From a virus (lineage: Duplodnaviria; Heunggongvirae; Uroviricota; Caudoviricetes), in the IMG/VR virus record IMGVR_UViG_2675903606_000003, positions 1-5,286 of that record: a DNA stretch of 5,286 nt. One strand, written 5' to 3'. Shown here piece by piece: positions 1 through 5,286 of the stretch. Within the stretch, counting starts at the first letter, position 1, and every line of letters begins with the position of its first letter. Under the pieces are notes generated by a model. The model saw nothing but the letters and a program-made list of their open reading frames with translations. It searched no databases and was not told where the DNA came from. The translations under genes were made by a program, and so were the position numbers.

Positions 1-231
1 ACCCCTGATGCAGTTGAAAAAATTCAGGCGTTGTTACCAGCGATCGAAAAGGCAATGCCACCTTTGCTGGTGGCCAGAATGCGCAGCCACAGTTCAGCTT
101 ATTTTCGGGAGCTGGTGGAGACGCGGGAGCGACTGGTGAGAGACGCTGATGATTTTGTCGCAGTGGCAATCGCCGGTTTCAATCAGATGAACAGTGGTGG
201 CCCGGCAGGAAATGCTGTGGCAGTACATTGA
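1..231 (+). CDS. 3' portion of a phage early-region protein that starts upstream of the window (5' partial)
   Basis: Frame 1 is open from base 1 to TGA at 229-231 (TPDAVEKIQALLPAIEKAMPPLLVARM...AVAVH). The ORF-track TTG at 31 and the internal ATG at 55 lack a properly spaced Shine-Dalgarno, so the gene most likely begins upstream. Position immediately before the replication initiator suggests a YdaT/CII-position early protein, but that identity is a guess from gene order only. Confidence 0.5.
   Translation, partial: TPDAVEKIQALLPAIEKAMPPLLVARMRSHSSAYFRELVETRERLVRDADDFVAVAIAGFNQMNSGGPAGNAVAVH
66..73 (+). other. Chi octamer 5'-GCTGGTGG-3'
   Basis: Exact match to the E. coli Chi sequence read directly on the + strand. 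Confidence 0.6.
111..118 (+). other. Chi octamer 5'-GCTGGTGG-3' (second copy, 45 bp downstream of the first)
   Basis: Exact match to Chi, same orientation as the copy at 66-73. Confidence 0.6.
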
Positions 232-302
232 CTGACAATAGCCATATCGAATCGCTTCCGGCAACTCGTGAGTAAAAAGATTCGGTATCAGAAGAGGTGA
301 GT

Positions 303-1361
303 ATGGCTAACGCCTGGCTCAGATTATGGCATGACATGCCGAATGACCCTAAGTGGCGAACAATTGCCAGGGTGTCAGGGCAGCCAATTGCAACAGTGAT
401 GGCAGTGTATATCCACCTCCTGGTGAGCGCGTCACGAAATGTCACGCGAGGTCACATTGATGTCACGACAGAAGATTTGGCAAGTGCGCTCGACGTGACA
501 GAAGAGGTAATTGATTCAATTTTGCAGACGATGCAGGGGCGGGTACTTGATGGTGATTTAATCACTGGATGGGAAAAACGCCAGGTGCTTAAAGAGGACA
601 ACGGCAATATTTCGCAAACCGCAAAATCTCCTGCAGAGCGCAAGAGGGCGCAGCGAGAGAGGGAAAGAAAGCGGGAACAAAATGGCGATTGTCACGGCGC
701 GTCACGAAATGTCACGCACATGTCACGACGAGTCACGACAGATAAAGATACAGATAAAGATACAGATAAAGATACAGATCAAGAAGATCAAAACACTATG
801 GTCCATGGCGTAAAAAACGCCACGAACCAGGCAGGGGATGTTCAGACCGTCAATCCTGGTCAGCCAGCAGGCACGACACCGGAAGCCGATTCGGGCGCTG
901 TGCAGCAGGTGATGACCGCAAGGCCGGAGCAATCACTCCAACTGCAGCAGCCTGAAGCCGATTCCGCCATTCAGCGGGAAGCCGATCGGGTAGCCCCGGA
1001 AAACACCGGGCAGCCTGTGGGACGAGTGGATTATCCGGATGTGTTCGAACAGGTCTGGCGGGAATACCCGTTGCGTGCCGGGGCAAACCCGAAGAAATCC
1101 GCTTTCAGTGCCTGGAAGGCCAGATTGCGCGAGGGGGTGCCACCAGAGACCATGCTGGATGGTGTGAGGCGTTACGCAAGATACCTGGCGGCGACCGGGA
1201 AAGCGGGAACGGAATTTGTTCAGCGAGCGACGACGTTTTTTGGGCCGGACCGGAATTTTGAAAACCCCTGGTTGCTCCCGGTAAGCGGCACGAACAACCA
1301 GCGTTGTGTGAATCATATTTCTGAACCGGACACTGAAATACCGCCGGGATTCAGGGGGTGA
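303..1361 (+). CDS. Phage replication initiator / replisome organizer (lambda O-like architecture)
   Basis: ATG at 303 with AGAAGAGG Shine-Dalgarno 6 nt upstream (the track's GTG at 297 is the alternative start); stop TGA 1359-1361. Contains iteron arrays and a low-complexity charged linker (AERKRAQRERERKREQ...TDKDTDKDTDKDTDQEDQ) between an N-terminal domain (WLRLWHDMPNDPKWRTIA...) and a C-terminal domain (VDYPDVFEQVWREYPLRAGANPKKSAFSAWKARL...). Sits directly upstream of a DnaC-like gene, as O/P or YdaU/YdaV-type modules do. Family is inferred from architecture, not a search. Confidence 0.8.
   Translation: MANAWLRLWHDMPNDPKWRTIARVSGQPIATVMAVYIHLLVSASRNVTRGHIDVTTEDLASALDVTEEVIDSILQTMQGRVLDGDLITGWEKRQVLKEDNGNISQTAKSPAERKRAQRERERKREQNGDCHGASRNVTHMSRRVTTDKDTDKDTDKDTDQEDQNTMVHGVKNATNQAGDVQTVNPGQPAGTTPEADSGAVQQVMTARPEQSLQLQQPEADSAIQREADRVAPENTGQPVGRVDYPDVFEQVWREYPLRAGANPKKSAFSAWKARLREGVPPETMLDGVRRYARYLAATGKAGTEFVQRATTFFGPDRNFENPWLLPVSGTNNQRCVNHISEPDTEIPPGFRG
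431..467 (+). repeat. Iteron array A: four GTCACG/GTCACA hexamers at 10-11 bp spacing inside the initiator gene
   Basis: GTCACG at 431-436, 441-446 and 462-467; GTCACA at 451-456. An inverted copy CGTGAC lies at 494-499. Confidence 0.7.
691..737 (+). repeat. Iteron array B: five GTCACG hexamers at 10-11 bp (helical-turn) spacing
   Basis: GTCACG at 691-696, 701-706, 711-716, 722-727 and 732-737. The block 700-717 (cgtcacgaaatgtcacgc) is identical to 430-447, and 732-742 (gtcacgacaga) is identical to 462-472. Confidence 0.75.
738..779 (+). repeat. 12-bp tandem repeat (ACAGATAAAGAT) x3.5, A-rich, immediately 3' of iteron array B
   Basis: Perfect copies at 738-749, 750-761 and 762-773, partial copy 774-779. 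In frame, it encodes TDKDTDKDTDKDTD. GATC sites at 777-780 and 786-789. Confidence 0.85.
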
Positions 1362-1367
1362 CGTGTC

Positions 1368-2114
1368 ATGAAAAACATTGCGGCAGTTGGGGTTCTTGAA
1401 CGTATTCGCAGACTTGCACCACAGGGGGCGGTTCCACCGTACCGGACGGTGGAGGAGTGGCGGGAATGGCAACTTGCTGAAGGACGAAAACGCAGCGAGG
1501 AGATTAACCGCCAGAATCGCCAGTTGCGGGTGGAAAAAATCCTGAATCGTTCGGGCATCCAGCCTCTGCACAGCAAATGCTCGTTTGCAAATTATCAGGT
1601 GCAGAACGACGGGCAAAAATACGCGCTGAGCCAGGCCAAATCCATAGCTGACGAACTGATGACCGGGTGCACGAATTTTGTGTTCAGCGGTAAAACCGGC
1701 ACCGGGAAAAATCACCTTGCAGCGGCGATGGGCAACCGGCTGATGGTGAAGGGGCGCAGCGTGATTATCGTCACCGTGTCTGACGTCATGAGCGTGTTGC
1801 ATGACAGCTACGACAACGGCAAATCCGGGGAAAAATTTTTACAGGAGTTTTGCGGGGTTGATTTGCTGGTCCTGGATGAAATAGGCGTTCAGCGGGAGAC
1901 GAAAAATGAGCAGGTGGTATTGCACCAGATAATTGATCGCCGGACAGCATCACTGTGCAGTGTCGGGATGTTAACAAACCTGAATCATGCCGCAATGAGT
2001 ACGCTTCTTGGTGAGAGGATTATGGACCGCATGACCATGAACGGTGGTCGATGGGTGACGTTTAACTGGGATAGCTGGCGTCCAAATGTCAGCAATCAGA
2101 GGGTTGTGAAGTAA
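1368..2114 (+). CDS. DnaC/IstB-like AAA+ ATPase, putative replicative helicase loader (Rac YdaV-like)
   Basis: ATG 1368 with AGGGGG Shine-Dalgarno 9 nt upstream; stop TAA 2112-2114. Walker A FSGKTGTGKNHLAAA (about 1683-1727) and Walker B DLLVLDEIG (about 1860-1886). Length of 248 aa and motif layout are typical of DnaC-family loaders. Starts 6 nt after the initiator's stop. Confidence 0.9.
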   Translation: MKNIAAVGVLERIRRLAPQGAVPPYRTVEEWREWQLAEGRKRSEEINRQNRQLRVEKILNRSGIQPLHSKCSFANYQVQNDGQKYALSQAKSIADELMTGCTNFVFSGKTGTGKNHLAAAMGNRLMVKGRSVIIVTVSDVMSVLHDSYDNGKSGEKFLQEFCGVDLLVLDEIGVQRETKNEQVVLHQIIDRRTASLCSVGMLTNLNHAAMSTLLGERIMDRMTMNGGRWVTFNWDSWRPNVSNQRVVK

Positions 2115-2135
2115 TTTTTGTTGGAGGACGTTTTA

Positions 2136-2906
2136 ATGGAAACTGTATTTGACGCACTGAAAGCAATGGGAAAAGCCACATCGGTAGAACTGGCCGCGCG
2201 ACTTGATATCAGTCGTGAAGAGGTTCTCAACGAGCTGTGGGAACTCAAAAGAAATGGCGTCGTTGATAAAACTGGTCACACCTGGTTTCTGGCTGGCGAA
2301 GGTGAATCCCGGGTAACCGAAGAGCGGCCAGTAAAATCTGAAGCACAGGATATGCTGACCGGGGAGGTCGAACAAAAAGTTACCGCAGACATGATGATTG
2401 AGTTTATCGGTCAGGATGGTGCTAAAACGTGTGAGGAACTGGCGGGTAAGTTCGGCGTCAGTACTCGCAAGGTTGCCTCCACGCTGGCGGTGGTAACCGC
2501 AACGGGGCAGCTGGCACGCGTTAATCAGAACGGTAAATTTCGTTACTGCATGCCGGGCGATAATTTACCAGCAGAGCCGAAAGCCGCGCTGGTAACGGAA
2601 AGTGATGGTAAGGCCTTTCCTCAGCCAGCAGGTGCTGCGTTACCAGTCCGGGAAGCCGCAACACAGGAAGAAATTAAAACAGAAACTGTGGCGGACATTG
2701 TGCAGCCGTTGCTATCGTTTACCGAAACGCAAGCAGATGAGCTGATTTTTCCGTCCCTTCGCAGGGCAAACCTGGCGCTGCGCAGGGCGAAAAGTGATGT
2801 TCAGAAGTGGGAGCGAGTCTGCGCCGCTCTGCGGGAGCTGAACAAGCACCGGGATATTGTTCGACAGATTACTGATTCTTCCCGCCATGTTGTATCGGAA
2901 AAGTGA
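2136..2906 (+). CDS. Hypothetical protein with two tandem winged-helix-like repeats
   Basis: ATG 2136 preceded by GGAGG at 2123-2127 (the track's TTG at 2118 is a less likely start); stop TGA 2904-2906. Two repeats with the same pattern: residues about 5-45 ([39 protein letters not shown]) and about 90-130 ([41 protein letters not shown]). The fold assignment is from pattern reading only. Confidence 0.7.
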
Positions 2907-2921
2907 TTGCCGGAGGCGCTT

Positions 2922-3314
2922 ATGGCAAAAGTATTTACACCAGAAGAGCGGGAAGAAGTGAAGGCGCGCATTGTGGAATTCGTGCGCCTGAGCGGACGAG
3001 AAACTTTTCGACAACTGGCAGATAAAACGGGTGTCAGTAAGACCGCTATTCGTCGTTTATCTGGTGCGCTTGCGGCCAGTGGTGATGTCTGGCTCTCTGG
3101 TTGCGGGGTATTTCCATCAGAGCAGGCGTATCGCGTATGGCGTAAGACACCGGAGAAGGCTGCTGACCCGACACTGATTCGAAAGTTACCTGACGGAGAA
3201 ATACGTCGTTACAACAGACGGCAGAACATAATTTGTCGTGAGTGCCGCCAGAGCGAAGTTATGCAGCGTGTGCTGGCGTTCTATCGGGGAAACTTTCAGG
3301 AGGTGATGGAGTGA
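2922..3314 (+). CDS. Hypothetical phage protein (130 aa)
   Basis: ATG 2922 with GGAGG at 2912-2916; stop TGA 3312-3314. The N-terminal 50 residues (VSKTAIRRL region) have an HTH-like pattern; there is a CxxC pair near the C-terminus (ICRECRQ). The track's TTG at 2907 is a less likely start. Confidence 0.65.
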   Translation: MAKVFTPEEREEVKARIVEFVRLSGRETFRQLADKTGVSKTAIRRLSGALAASGDVWLSGCGVFPSEQAYRVWRKTPEKAADPTLIRKLPDGEIRRYNRRQNIICRECRQSEVMQRVLAFYRGNFQEVME

Positions 3315-3614
3315 GGGTCAGAGTTTATATTGCCGGTCCAATGACGGGATATGAAAATTTCAACCGTGAGGCGTTTCACAAGGCGGAAGAGGAACTGAAA
3401 CGGGAAGGGCATACCGTCTTAAACCCGGCAGTACTTCCGGACGGGCTGACACAGCCGCACTACATGGATATTTGCATGGCAATGATTCGTTGTGTGGATG
3501 CGATTTACATGCTGAATGGCTGGCAGCGGTCAGCGGTCAGCGGGCGCTAAGGCAGAGCTGGCACTGGCGGAGAAACTGGGGCATGCAGTGATTTATCAGG
3601 AGGTGGCTCAATGA
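3311..3614 (+). pseudogene. DUF4406-like gene (nucleoside 2-deoxyribosyltransferase-like fold) disrupted by a +1 frameshift from a 7-bp tandem duplication
   Basis: GTG 3311 overlaps the upstream stop (GTGA) and follows AGGAGGTGA. The N-terminus RVRVYIAGPMTGYENFNREAFHKAEEELKREGHTVLNP matches my recollection of the DUF4406 signature. The frame terminates at TAA 3548-3550 right after the repeat CAGCGGT-CAGCGGT-CAGCGGG (3524-3544). The +1 frame then continues open (SAGAKAELALAEKLGHAVIYQEVAQ) to TGA 3612-3614, which overlaps the next gene's ATG 3611 (ATGA). Removing one 7-mer gives a single ORF of about 99 aa. Confidence 0.6.
3524..3544 (+). repeat. 7-bp tandem repeat (CAGCGGT x2 plus CAGCGGG) at the frameshift site
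   Basis: Read directly: cagcggt (3524-3530), cagcggt (3531-3537), cagcggg (3538-3544). Confidence 0.9.
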
Positions 3615-4072
3615 GAGAGGTTAACTATGAGGCGCTTCGTGAGGCAGCACAAAACTATCAGTCGACGCTGGCGTGGTATCAGGCTATCCCGGACAGCCCA
3701 AATGCTGAACGGGATTGTGATGCGGCTCTTGCTGCGTTTAAGCGTCACATCCGTCATCGGGAAGCGGATATTATCGCTGATTTGCTGGATGGACTGGAAG
3801 AAGCAAAATCACAACTCAAAGAGCAGCGTGAGTATTACGAAGGCGTTATCTCTGATGGGAGCAAGCGTATTGCTGAACTGGAAGCGCGGGAAGTTCAATT
3901 ACCGACTCGCTACGACCTTCGATATGGACACCCGATAAATGCAGATGAGCGACATGTCATGATACCTAAAGAAAATGGCAGTTGGCTTTACCTGATTGAC
4001 CTAGAACACGCATTACGCGTCTCTGGCATTCGCATCAAAGGAGAGGAGCATGGAAATAAAACCAGAGGATGA
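3611..4072 (+). CDS. Hypothetical phage protein (153 aa)
   Basis: ATG 3611 with AGGAGG at 3598-3603; stop TGA 4070-4072. Coiled-coil-like middle section (EEAKSQLKEQREYYEGVISDGSKRIAELEAREVQL). No family recognised. Confidence 0.7.
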   Translation: MREVNYEALREAAQNYQSTLAWYQAIPDSPNAERDCDAALAAFKRHIRHREADIIADLLDGLEEAKSQLKEQREYYEGVISDGSKRIAELEAREVQLPTRYDLRYGHPINADERHVMIPKENGSWLYLIDLEHALRVSGIRIKGEEHGNKTRG

Positions 4073-4406
4073 GTTAAGCAATATCGTTTTATTTCCGGTA
4101 AAAGAGGATGACCCTCGTAATCAGGTTAATTTTCTTTATGAGCCATCGGAAAGACCATATTGTCATCACGCCTCTGTTCGGGTTGACGAAAAAGAGCGCT
4201 AGGTCCGCTGTAAAATCTGCGGTGCGGTTGTGGAGCCGTTTGACTGGATGCTCTCTGTGGCGAAAAGAGAAACCAGACTGGCAGATGATGTAAGGCTATT
4301 GCGCCAGGAGGAACAGGAAAGGCGGAAAAATATAGAAAAGTTAATTCAGATTGAACGTAACGCGAAAGCGCGGATACGCAGGGCGACAAAATCCAGAACT
4401 GAATAA
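4050..4406 (+). pseudogene. Small zinc-ribbon-like protein gene interrupted by an in-frame amber (TAG) codon at 4200-4202
   Basis: ATG 4050 with AGGAGAGGAG 2-11 nt upstream. Translation: MEIKPEDELSNIVLFPVKEDDPRNQVNFLYEPSERPYCHHASVRVDEKER-TAG-VRCKICGAVVEPFDWMLSVAKRETRLADDVRLLRQEEQERRKNIEKLIQIERNAKARIRRATKSRTE, ending at TAA 4404-4406. The segment after TAG has no start codon with a Shine-Dalgarno, so it is unlikely to be a separate gene. Cys/His residues lie on both sides of the TAG. Confidence 0.5.
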
Positions 4407-4456
4407 ATAAATTTAGCGCTGTAAATAAAATCTAATCCTTAACTGGAGGTGTATTT

Positions 4457-4669
4457 ATGTTAAATACACAGAAAGCCATTAATGCGGAAAAATATAACGA
4501 GTGGGCAAGAAAATTCTCTGAGCAGATTTTTAAAATTACTGGCGATGAGAATGCGGCAAAAAATGAATTAGAACCGTGGACACCTGAAGGAAACGCACCA
4601 AATTATTGCTGGTGGGAGGTTGATCCGGTTGATGTTGCAAATGAAGCCATGAGTTACCACAACGATTAA
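4457..4669 (+). CDS. Hypothetical small protein (70 aa)
   Basis: ATG 4457 with GGAGG at 4445-4449 (7 nt spacing); stop TAA 4667-4669. Preceded by a 50-bp AT-rich intergenic region. Confidence 0.6.
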   Translation: MLNTQKAINAEKYNEWARKFSEQIFKITGDENAAKNELEPWTPEGNAPNYCWWEVDPVDVANEAMSYHND

Positions 4670-4678
4670 TGTCAGGAG

Positions 4679-4696
4679 GCCGCCTGAAAGGGCGGT
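4679..4696 (+). other. Short GC hairpin (CCGCC / loop TGAAAG / GGCGG) in the intergenic region
   Basis: 5-bp GC stem at 4680-4684 and 4691-4695 with a 6-nt loop. No downstream U-run, so not a classical intrinsic terminator. The stem abuts an AGGAGG at 4674-4679. Confidence 0.25.
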
Positions 4697-4701
4697 AAGA
4701 A

Positions 4702-4920
4702 ATGACTACATTATTCAGAAAAGAATATCCGAGAAAAAGTAGAGCGACAGAATTTTTGTTTCTCATTATATTTATCGTGTTGATGATACCGATACCCCCG
4801 CTATTACTGGTCTGGTTTATCGTGAAAATAATTGAGCCAGTTATTGAATTGTATAACGACGTGGTGTGGGCGTCGTTCAGCACACTGCACAATAAAATTA
4901 ATCCGTATAAGGAAAGCTGA
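4702..4920 (+). CDS. Small membrane protein (72 aa, one predicted transmembrane helix)
   Basis: ATG 4702; stop TGA 4918-4920. Hydrophobic stretch FLFLIIFIVLMIPIPPLLLVWFIVKII after a basic N-terminus (RKEYPRKSRATE). Local GC content is clearly lower than in the replication genes. Confidence 0.55.
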   Translation: MTTLFRKEYPRKSRATEFLFLIIFIVLMIPIPPLLLVWFIVKIIEPVIELYNDVVWASFSTLHNKINPYKES

Positions 4921-4921
4921 T

Positions 4922-5286
4922 ATGGCACTGACGAAAAAACAACGTGCAGAGCTGCGCATGAAGTTCGGCGGTCGCTGTGCTTATTGCGGCTGCGAACTTG
5001 GCGAAAAGTGGCATGCAGACCATGTAAAACCGGTCATTCGTTTTGATGGAAATATGCTTCACCAGGAACGTGACGATATATCCAACATGGTTCCGGCATG
5101 CCACCCATGCAATCTGCACAAGCATTGCAGTAGTCTGGAAGATTATCGGCGAATTATCAGTGATGGTCGTCGTGAATTCCTTGCGTCCGGGAAAGGCAAA
5201 GCGCTGGTTCGTATGGGATTGGTTGAAATGAAATCTGACCCAGTTGTGTTCTGGTTTGAAAAATATCAAGAAGGGGCTACGGCATG
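4922..5286 (+). CDS. HNH endonuclease (3' partial, continues beyond the window)
   Basis: ATG 4922 with AAGGA at 4909-4913. HNH signature: CAYCGC...WHADHVKP...N...CHPCNLHKH (CxxC, H-x-D-H, conserved Asn, CxxCN..K). No stop codon before base 5286. Confidence 0.8.
   Translation, partial: MALTKKQRAELRMKFGGRCAYCGCELGEKWHADHVKPVIRFDGNMLHQERDDISNMVPACHPCNLHKHCSSLEDYRRIISDGRREFLASGKGKALVRMGLVEMKSDPVVFWFEKYQEGATA

Follow-up and report, generated by a model that had tools for sequence, protein, structure and literature searches.

Replication origins that lie inside the gene of their own initiator are a known kind. At ori-lambda, iterons and an AT-rich tract lie midway through the O gene (PMC7466680), and oriL of phage SPP1 combines direct repeats with an AT-rich unwinding element inside gene 38, where they are bound by gp38 (PMC6316719). 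In Escherichia coli K-12, the Rac prophage origin oriJ has been reported to be active (PMC3945230). We compared these systems to a stretch of viral DNA of 5,286 nucleotides (IMG/VR virus record IMGVR_UViG_2675903606_000003, positions 1 to 5,286; hereafter the window), which comes from a lambdoid E. coli prophage and represents its early-right region. The window harbors a replication initiator gene coding for 352 residues (303..1361, plus strand; ATG at 303, with an alternative GTG at 297, as taken from the list of open reading frames (ORFs)). We conclude that two segments of this gene, 431-499 and 691-790, probably form the vegetative replication origin of the prophage. The element is an uncharacterised, two-array member of the known kind.

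The more obvious part of the element is a group of five GTCACG cores at positions 691, 701, 711, 722 and 732 (array 2; 691..737, plus strand), which encodes residues 130-145 of the initiator. The cores are spaced by 10, 10, 11 and 10 bp and lie in reading phases 1, 2, 0, 2 and 0, and Tandem Repeats Finder detects them as an array of period 10 (690-740; consensus TGTCACGACA). A first-pass annotation of the window had already noted five GTCACG hexamers at helical-turn spacing in 691-737, and we could reproduce their exact positions. Its origin-like element was correctly placed at array 2 but is incomplete, as the element has two parts and the other array was overlooked. This array 1 is located ~260 bp upstream in the same gene (431..467, plus strand), with GTCACG at 431, 441 and 462 and GTCACA at 451, again spaced by 10, 10 and 11 bp. 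It encodes residues 43-55, which form the end of a predicted helix (residues 29-45) and the loop that follows. A single inverted GTCACG core is found at 494..499 (minus strand), encoding residues 64-66 (DVT). Overall, GTCACG occurs 10 times in the window, compared with 2.5 +/- 1.6 expected copies, a count that was not reached in any of 200 dinucleotide shuffles. The complete genome of phage Tritos (46 kb) has no GTCACG clusters other than arrays 1 and 2. The cores are direct repeats of 6-7 bp with a period of 10-11 bp, a spacing that would place all of them on one face of the DNA helix. The locus thus shows what is generally asked of an iteron origin, namely a clustered excess of three or more direct repeats that recur about once per helical turn. 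We found no DnaA box (TTATNCACA, with at most one mismatch) and no integration host factor (IHF) consensus near the element, the counts for both being at or below chance, which is consistent with an initiator-driven origin. A promoter scan returned one weak match on the minus strand (715-688), again at chance level.

We next asked how the repeats behave in related genes, using 80 close relatives from viral contigs and 52 loci that share the N-terminal domain of the initiator, with one genome per species. GTCAC arrays are present at the same gene positions in 25 loci, i.e. in the window and in 24 others, from beta- and gammaproteobacteria. The hosts include Escherichia, Shigella, Serratia, Rahnella, Pseudomonas, Bordetella, Acidovorax, Chromobacterium, Stenotrophomonas, Pseudothauera and Entomomonas, among others, and the GC content of the loci ranges from 0.34 to 0.70. 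Counted along the gene, cores are found at ~129, 139, 149 and 160, an inverted core at ~193, and then three to six further copies that end at ~409-457. The core positions of array 1 are occupied in nearly all of the 24 other loci, an inverted GTGAC is found at the place equivalent to 494-499 in most of them, and the equivalent of array 2 has three to six cores in 25 of 25. The distance from array to array is 249, 258, 267 or 270 bp and changes in whole-codon steps; a conserved helical phasing between the arrays was rejected on these values.

Within the homologous arrays, neighboring cores are 10 bp apart in 101 cases and 11 bp apart in 30. All three reading phases are used (82, 54 and 58 cases), and one and the same hexamer is thus read as VT, SR or xH. 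Codon usage follows the hexamer: the dipeptide SR is encoded by TCACGN in 47 of 50 instances in the array zones but in only 5 of 21 elsewhere (p = 5e-9), and valine is encoded by GTC in 95 of 180 instances inside the arrays, compared with 57 of 249 elsewhere. At synonymous third positions of equally conserved residues, the major-allele frequency is 0.97 in cores and 0.56 outside (21 loci, p = 3e-4), and the sixth core base, a G, is invariant as well. In a set of 35 distinct close N-terminal halves, variation is seen in 2 of 45 core columns but in 84 of 385 other columns. The protein alignment contains corresponding residues that are invariant or nearly so (>=90%), namely Ser-44, Asn-46, Val-47, Thr-48, Arg-49, Gly-50, His-51, Val-54 and Thr-55 in array 1 and His-131, Ser-134, Arg-135, Val-144 and Thr-145 in array 2. 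Given the frames, the codon choice and the fixed synonymous sites, this invariance is best read as a result of constraint on the DNA. Inverted copies are tolerated at 494-499, in array 2 of POCJ13 relative to its O157 version, and in the third copy of K-12 ydaU, suggesting that duplex DNA is recognized rather than mRNA; no Rfam family matches in the window. Together, the alignments show that selection acts on the repeats as DNA and not as protein, pointing to an iteron-like element.

The core sequence changes together with the protein that is expected to read it. In the same N-domain family, GTCACG is replaced by GTAACG in 6 loci and by CGAACG(C) in 9 loci, with the identical core in both arrays, at the same places and with the same 10-bp pitch. 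The initiators of O157:H7 and of POCJ13 and PhiR5_2 carry AAGGGGCTT repeats at two equivalent places, and their N-terminal half has no detectable similarity to that of the window (E = 15). Between the loci L002 and L003 on the one side and L085 and L088 on the other, array 2 of this class differs in orientation, being direct in O157-type genes but inverted in POCJ13 and PhiR5_2. In POCJ13, the inversion has altered the peptide and retained the site, and both the position and the neighboring GAACAG repeat are kept. In all four classes (GTCACG, GTAACG, CGAACG and AAGGGGCTT), both arrays thus change together with the N-terminal half. The repeats appear to have co-evolved with their cognate initiator, as is asked of an iteron-type origin, and the suggestion of the first-pass annotation that GTCACG marks a distinct specificity is borne out by the sister classes. 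The residues that discriminate between the GTCACG, GTAACG and CGAACG subfamilies map almost all to the array 1 loop (residues 44-56) and to the inverted core (residues 64-66), the N-terminal domain being otherwise nearly identical. In some loci (L090, L086, L087, L114 and L115), array 1 has grown to five to six cores or has been rearranged, with overlapping and inverted cores (GTCACGTCACGTCACGTGAC), and these changes add residues to the loop of the N-terminal domain.

Array 2 is directly followed by an A-rich, purine-skewed tract (738..790, plus strand), consisting of a ACAGATAAAGAT repeat and a tail, which we regard as a candidate DNA-unwinding element. The repeat had been described as 3.5 copies of an A-rich 12-mer at 738-779; the repeat is real, and Tandem Repeats Finder extends it to 3.9 copies at 738-784 with 97% matches. 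The 40-mer at 740-779 is the least stable in the window (rank 1 of 5247; dG -42.4 compared with a mean of -55.7 and a standard deviation of 4.2), with an AT content of 0.75 and a purine content of 0.75; the AT content of the whole tract is 0.72. Every GTCAC, GTAACG and CGAACG locus has a AGATAAAGA-type tract that begins at most 10 nucleotides past the final core of array 2, and this tract is kept even in hosts and loci of 60-70% GC (L105, L106, L098). The copy number of the 12-mer is variable, with 3-11 hexamer units found among genes that are ~95% identical. We located both of the GATC (Dam) sites noted previously (777-780 and 786-789) in a sequence scan. Only some homologues have GATC at the distal end of the tract, and the role of these sites is thus uncertain; they were dropped as a conserved feature. 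An imperfect palindrome adjoins the tract on its right (799..829, minus strand). On the minus strand it reads as a terminator-like hairpin of 13 pairs followed by a U/T-rich run (AUAGUGUUUUG), with a fold z of -3.8, compared with -2.5 for the plus strand. All 13 pairs are kept in 7 distinct variants; compensatory changes occur at two of the pairs, and another is an invariant G-U that the plus strand would turn into a C-A mismatch. There is no promoter-like site within 1500 nucleotides to the right of the palindrome, and it is uncertain whether the palindrome forms part of the origin.

The initiator itself appears to be built from two modules. An AlphaFold2 model of residues 1-161 places helices at residues 2-11, 16-25, 29-45, 56-63 and 67-77 and a hairpin at 78-88, with predicted local distance difference test (pLDDT) values of 84-92 for the 10-residue blocks covering 11-40 and 51-90 and of 70 for block 41-50. 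We interpret residues 1-130 (303..692, plus strand) as a putative iteron-binding, winged-helix-like domain. The model also shows a basic helix (residues 110-126, AERKRAQRERERKRE; 630..680, plus strand) that is located between the N-terminal domain and array 2, and whose ERKR.QRERE motif is conserved in the protein alignment. Residues 130-161, encoded by array 2 and the 12-mer repeat, are predicted to be disordered (pLDDT < 50), in agreement with the earlier placement of the element in a charged linker. Homologues of the N-terminal domain are found in many proteobacteria, with 56-74% identity. A Pfam search with the whole initiator gave no match at E <= 0.01. At E <= 10, the N-terminal domain matched only PF09681 and HTH_Crp_2. 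The match to PF09681 (Phage_rep_org_N) is weak (E = 0.0085; 16.5 bits, compared with a gathering score of 23.3), and although it is below threshold it spans positions 1-119 of the 121 in the profile. NCBIfam and PDB sequence-profile searches returned no significant family or fold for this domain, and a Foldseek search against PDB returned only non-significant winged-helix regulators. The protein is named 'phage replisome organizer' by NCBI. Judged by these profile matches, the initiator is not a homologue of lambda O (PF04492) and may at most be a distant relative of the PF09681 'replisome organiser' proteins.

The C-terminal half (790..1361, plus strand) is DnaD-like by PHROG and may represent a loader-interaction module: phrog_1701, 'DnaD-like helicase loader', matches residues 130-352 with E = 2e-63. 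The last residues (329-352, encoded by 1290-1361; ...SEPDTEIPPGFRG) show a weak match to the extreme C-terminus of host DnaT (NF002770, E = 0.0015). They contain a PPGFRG tail that is invariant among initiators with unrelated N-terminal halves and that mostly co-occurs with a DnaC-like gene directly downstream, an arrangement mirroring the host dnaT-dnaC order. The tail may be a docking site for the helicase loader.

Natural mosaics separate the two modules. In the E. coli genome search, the query starts at window position 297, its positions 464 and 494 corresponding to window positions 760 and 790. Two mosaics (L085, L088) have only 790-1361 in common with the window; their N-terminal half is a different one that brings its own iterons and purine-rich tract, and their initiator gene is followed by a DnaC-like loader gene. 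At the DNA level, the C-terminal half is 97% identical between the window and O157:H7 prophage initiators, whose N-terminal half is unrelated. Conversely, in L086 and L087 the common region is restricted to 297-760, which takes in the N-terminal half and both arrays and extends just into the tract. Here, array 1 has grown to six cores, the C-terminal half of the initiator is DnaT-like (PF17948), and the loader that comes next is lambda-P-like. Homology in the mosaics either stops at 760 or starts at 790, so that the breakpoint falls at the repeat tract. It follows from these mosaics that the N-terminal half, iterons and tract are one unit of exchange, and that the C-terminal half and the loader are the other. 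This association of N-terminal half with origin specificity and of C-terminal half with loader type corresponds to the logic of lambda O.

We infer from these findings that the initiator binds the cores, that the tract melts and that replication starts here. The winged-helix-like N-terminal domain would bind the GTCACG cores on one helix face, in clusters ~260 bp apart, and oligomerisation of the initiator on the cores would stress the adjoining A-rich tract (738-790), the easiest place to melt in the region. The C-terminal half would then recruit the DnaC-like loader (1368-2114) together with host DnaB. Transcription running rightward across the initiator gene probably helps, as it does at ori-lambda.

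Several observations weigh against this mechanism or parts of it. The cores are very short (6-7 bp) beside the iterons of lambda or of plasmids, and the fold of the N-terminal domain is not significantly tied to any solved DNA-binding protein. The inter-array distance does not stay in helical phase, and a precise looped structure is thus unsupported. In the complete Tritos genome, the A-rich tract ranks only 544 of 46321 in stability, and the tracts of the O157/POCJ13 and Rac-type initiators are purine-rich and not AT-rich, being made of GAACAG and AGAGGA hexamers. The tract is in addition a slippage-prone coding repeat and a recombination joint, and slippage and recombination could account in part for its persistence without a role in unwinding. 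Phage Tritos (L141, 32105-33638) and a Shigella locus (L089) have the same initiator and arrays with no adjacent DnaC-like gene, which suggests that the initiator may use host DnaC in some phages. Finally, the iterons are not described in the literature we consulted on oriJ mapping, ydaU/ydaV, replisome-organiser iterons and Eru types, although an earlier description is possible.

Some of these points would be accommodated if the iterons are functional and the 12-mer is merely a flexible, slippage-prone acidic/basic linker and recombination joint, with unwinding occurring elsewhere or at no dedicated element. The spread of 3-11 hexamer units among nearly identical genes would be expected of such a linker, and so would the fact that the repeat is always in frame (TDKD units), that mosaic breakpoints fall within it, and that purine repeats with more GC (GAACAG, AGAGGA) stand in its place in other initiator classes. 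However, the AGATAAAGA nucleotides are kept beside the last iteron at 60-70% GC even though G/C-ending codons for Asp, Lys and Glu exist, the same motif recurs behind unrelated N-terminal domains, for example in K-12 ydaU, and the tract is the stability minimum of the window. We consider this explanation unlikely. Slightly less probable still is the main rival, namely that the arrays are binding sites through which the initiator exerts control, through autoregulation of its own gene, by acting as a roadblock, or through titration or handcuffing of the kind known from plasmid P1 incA, and that replication starts elsewhere, either outside the window or downstream of the loader gene. Plasmid systems employ extra iteron arrays for control, and the locus does have two arrays, one of which (431-467) lies within the coding region of the DNA-binding domain, far from any A-rich tract; array copy number also varies between 3 and 6 among homologues. 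Against this stand the constant joining of array 2 to a low-stability A-rich tract, which is the layout of an initiation site, the lack of any further core cluster in the complete Tritos genome, and the exchange of N-terminal half, iterons and tract as a module, as expected of a self-contained origin and specificity unit.

The repeats could also be the by-product of a peptide motif (SRNVT / VT / H), or sites read in the mRNA, and have no function in duplex DNA. The core-encoded residues are indeed invariant or nearly so in the protein alignment, but the hexamer yields different peptides in its three frames, codon choice and synonymous sites are fixed only within the cores, array 2 encodes a segment that is predicted to be disordered, and there is no Rfam match. 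In addition, inverted copies are found at 494-499, in POCJ13 array 2 and in K-12 ydaU. We rejected the repeated-peptide explanation on frame usage, codon choice, synonymous fixation and the inverted copies, and regard it, together with its mRNA variant, as highly improbable.

An origin at 431-499 and 691-790 remains our preferred reading, and we give a small chance to a more speculative idea. Array 1 may itself encode the specificity determinant that reads array 1, and the AGATAAAGA tract could in addition be a common entry motif for the loader or the helicase and not just AT-rich DNA. If the array 1 loop contacts bases, the site and its reader would share the same nucleotides, and one DNA change, gene-converted to array 2, could create a new incompatibility or specificity class. 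A defined origin with its iteron code would allow prophage origins to be annotated from sequence alone, make incompatibility and cross-activation between co-resident prophages predictable, and enable the building of small phage-derived replicons of differing specificity. Eru4-type sister modules, e.g. that of phage 75/02, drive Shiga toxin (Stx) phages (PMC8951638), and the code would help in the design of experiments on replication-dependent toxin production in Stx phages that are not of the lambda type. The locus also provides a clean natural case in which selection at the DNA level overrides codon freedom within a protein-coding gene.

The window is ~95% identical in DNA to phages Tritos and Evi and to several vB_Eco isolates. 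It starts with the 3' end of a cII-like gene (31-231; phrog_163), followed by the initiator gene, which matches phrog_3729, 'replication initiation protein', over its full length (E = 9e-243). The DnaC-like helicase loader gene (1368..2114, plus strand) is assigned by PF01695 IstB_IS21 (E = 7e-19), by phrog_50 and by NCBIfam PRK12377 (E = 5e-152), and it also matches the DnaC equivalog (E = 4e-89), under the cut-off of that model. DUF1627 and DUF977 genes come next, and Pfam and NCBIfam searches returned no phage helicase gene in the window. Of 5426 complete E. coli genomes, 1647 contain the initiator gene at >=80% coverage, and relatives occur in prophages of many other bacteria, among them Shigella, Pseudomonas and Bordetella. 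Further downstream, a perfect 7-bp tandem repeat (CAGCGGT, 2.9 copies by Tandem Repeats Finder; 3524-3543) is located at the end of ORF 3312-3550. Dropping one copy would put this ORF in frame with ...GAKAELALAEKLGHAVIYQEVAQ, and the gene thus looks frameshifted by a 7-bp duplication. An in-frame TAG (4200-4202) separates ORF 4050-4202 from ORF 4230-4406, which together resemble one small Cys/His-containing protein. This split reading frame (4050-4406) may represent either a pseudogene or a suppressible amber codon.

Iteron plasmids such as P1 (oriR/incA), F and R6K have short direct repeats at helical pitch that are bound by the cognate Rep protein. As in these plasmids, the two arrays of the window could pair or loop. 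Plasmid iterons, however, are 17-22 bp long and lie outside the rep coding sequence, whereas both arrays described here are in-frame coding DNA of a phage initiator.

The closest gene context is found in the Rac prophage, where ydaU and ydaV likewise represent an initiator-like gene and a DnaC-like gene (~80% protein identity by tblastn), followed by the DUF1627 gene ydaW. YdaU has the same C-terminal PPGFRG tail, and K-12 ydaU contains three copies of TGTTCAAAC in its linker, followed by a near-identical GATAAAGATACAGATAAAGATC tract. In contrast to the window, its N-terminal domain is a DUF1376 domain, its iterons are different and there is no array 1. An hhalign comparison links the N-terminal domain of the window only weakly to the Rac-type YdaU from MN652886 (E = 0.008, probability of 5%). 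In the K-12 Rac prophage (L142, 4512-4640), two of the TGTTCAAAC copies are direct and one is inverted, and AATAAAGATACAGATAAAGATCTAAAAACAGATC follows; this makes ydaU a candidate for oriJ.

As in SPP1 oriL, direct repeats together with an AT-rich element are embedded in the gene of the initiator, with a loader gene after it, and the N-terminal domain matches the SPP1-type family PF09681, weakly and below threshold but over its full length. SPP1 encodes the organiser gp38, the loader gp39 and the helicase gp40, whereas the window has no phage helicase gene. The host is proteobacterial, the iteron sequence is unrelated, and no second distant origin comparable to oriR was seen in the Tritos genome.

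In lambda and Stx phages, too, the initiator gene holds, midway along its length, a repeat array followed by an AT-rich tract, in the linker between an origin-binding N-terminal part and a loader-binding C-terminal part, and the two halves, one with the iterons and the other with the loader, are swappable modules as in lambda O/P. Lambda likewise has a palindrome on the right side of its AT-rich tract. The first-pass annotation had described the layout as the same as that of ori-lambda, which holds for the linker-embedded repeats and the AT-rich tract but does not extend to homology to O or to palindromic sites of ~19 bp. Our initiator has no detectable similarity to Phage_rep_O in Pfam, and where lambda has four to six ~19-bp sites with dyad symmetry, the window has direct cores of 6-7 bp with a pitch of 10-11 bp. 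It also differs from lambda in its second array, 260 bp upstream in the coding region of the N-terminal domain, and in its DnaC-like loader, a P-like loader being found in the mosaics L086 and L087. Judged by these analogies, the best reading of the element is that it works like ori-lambda and SPP1 oriL.

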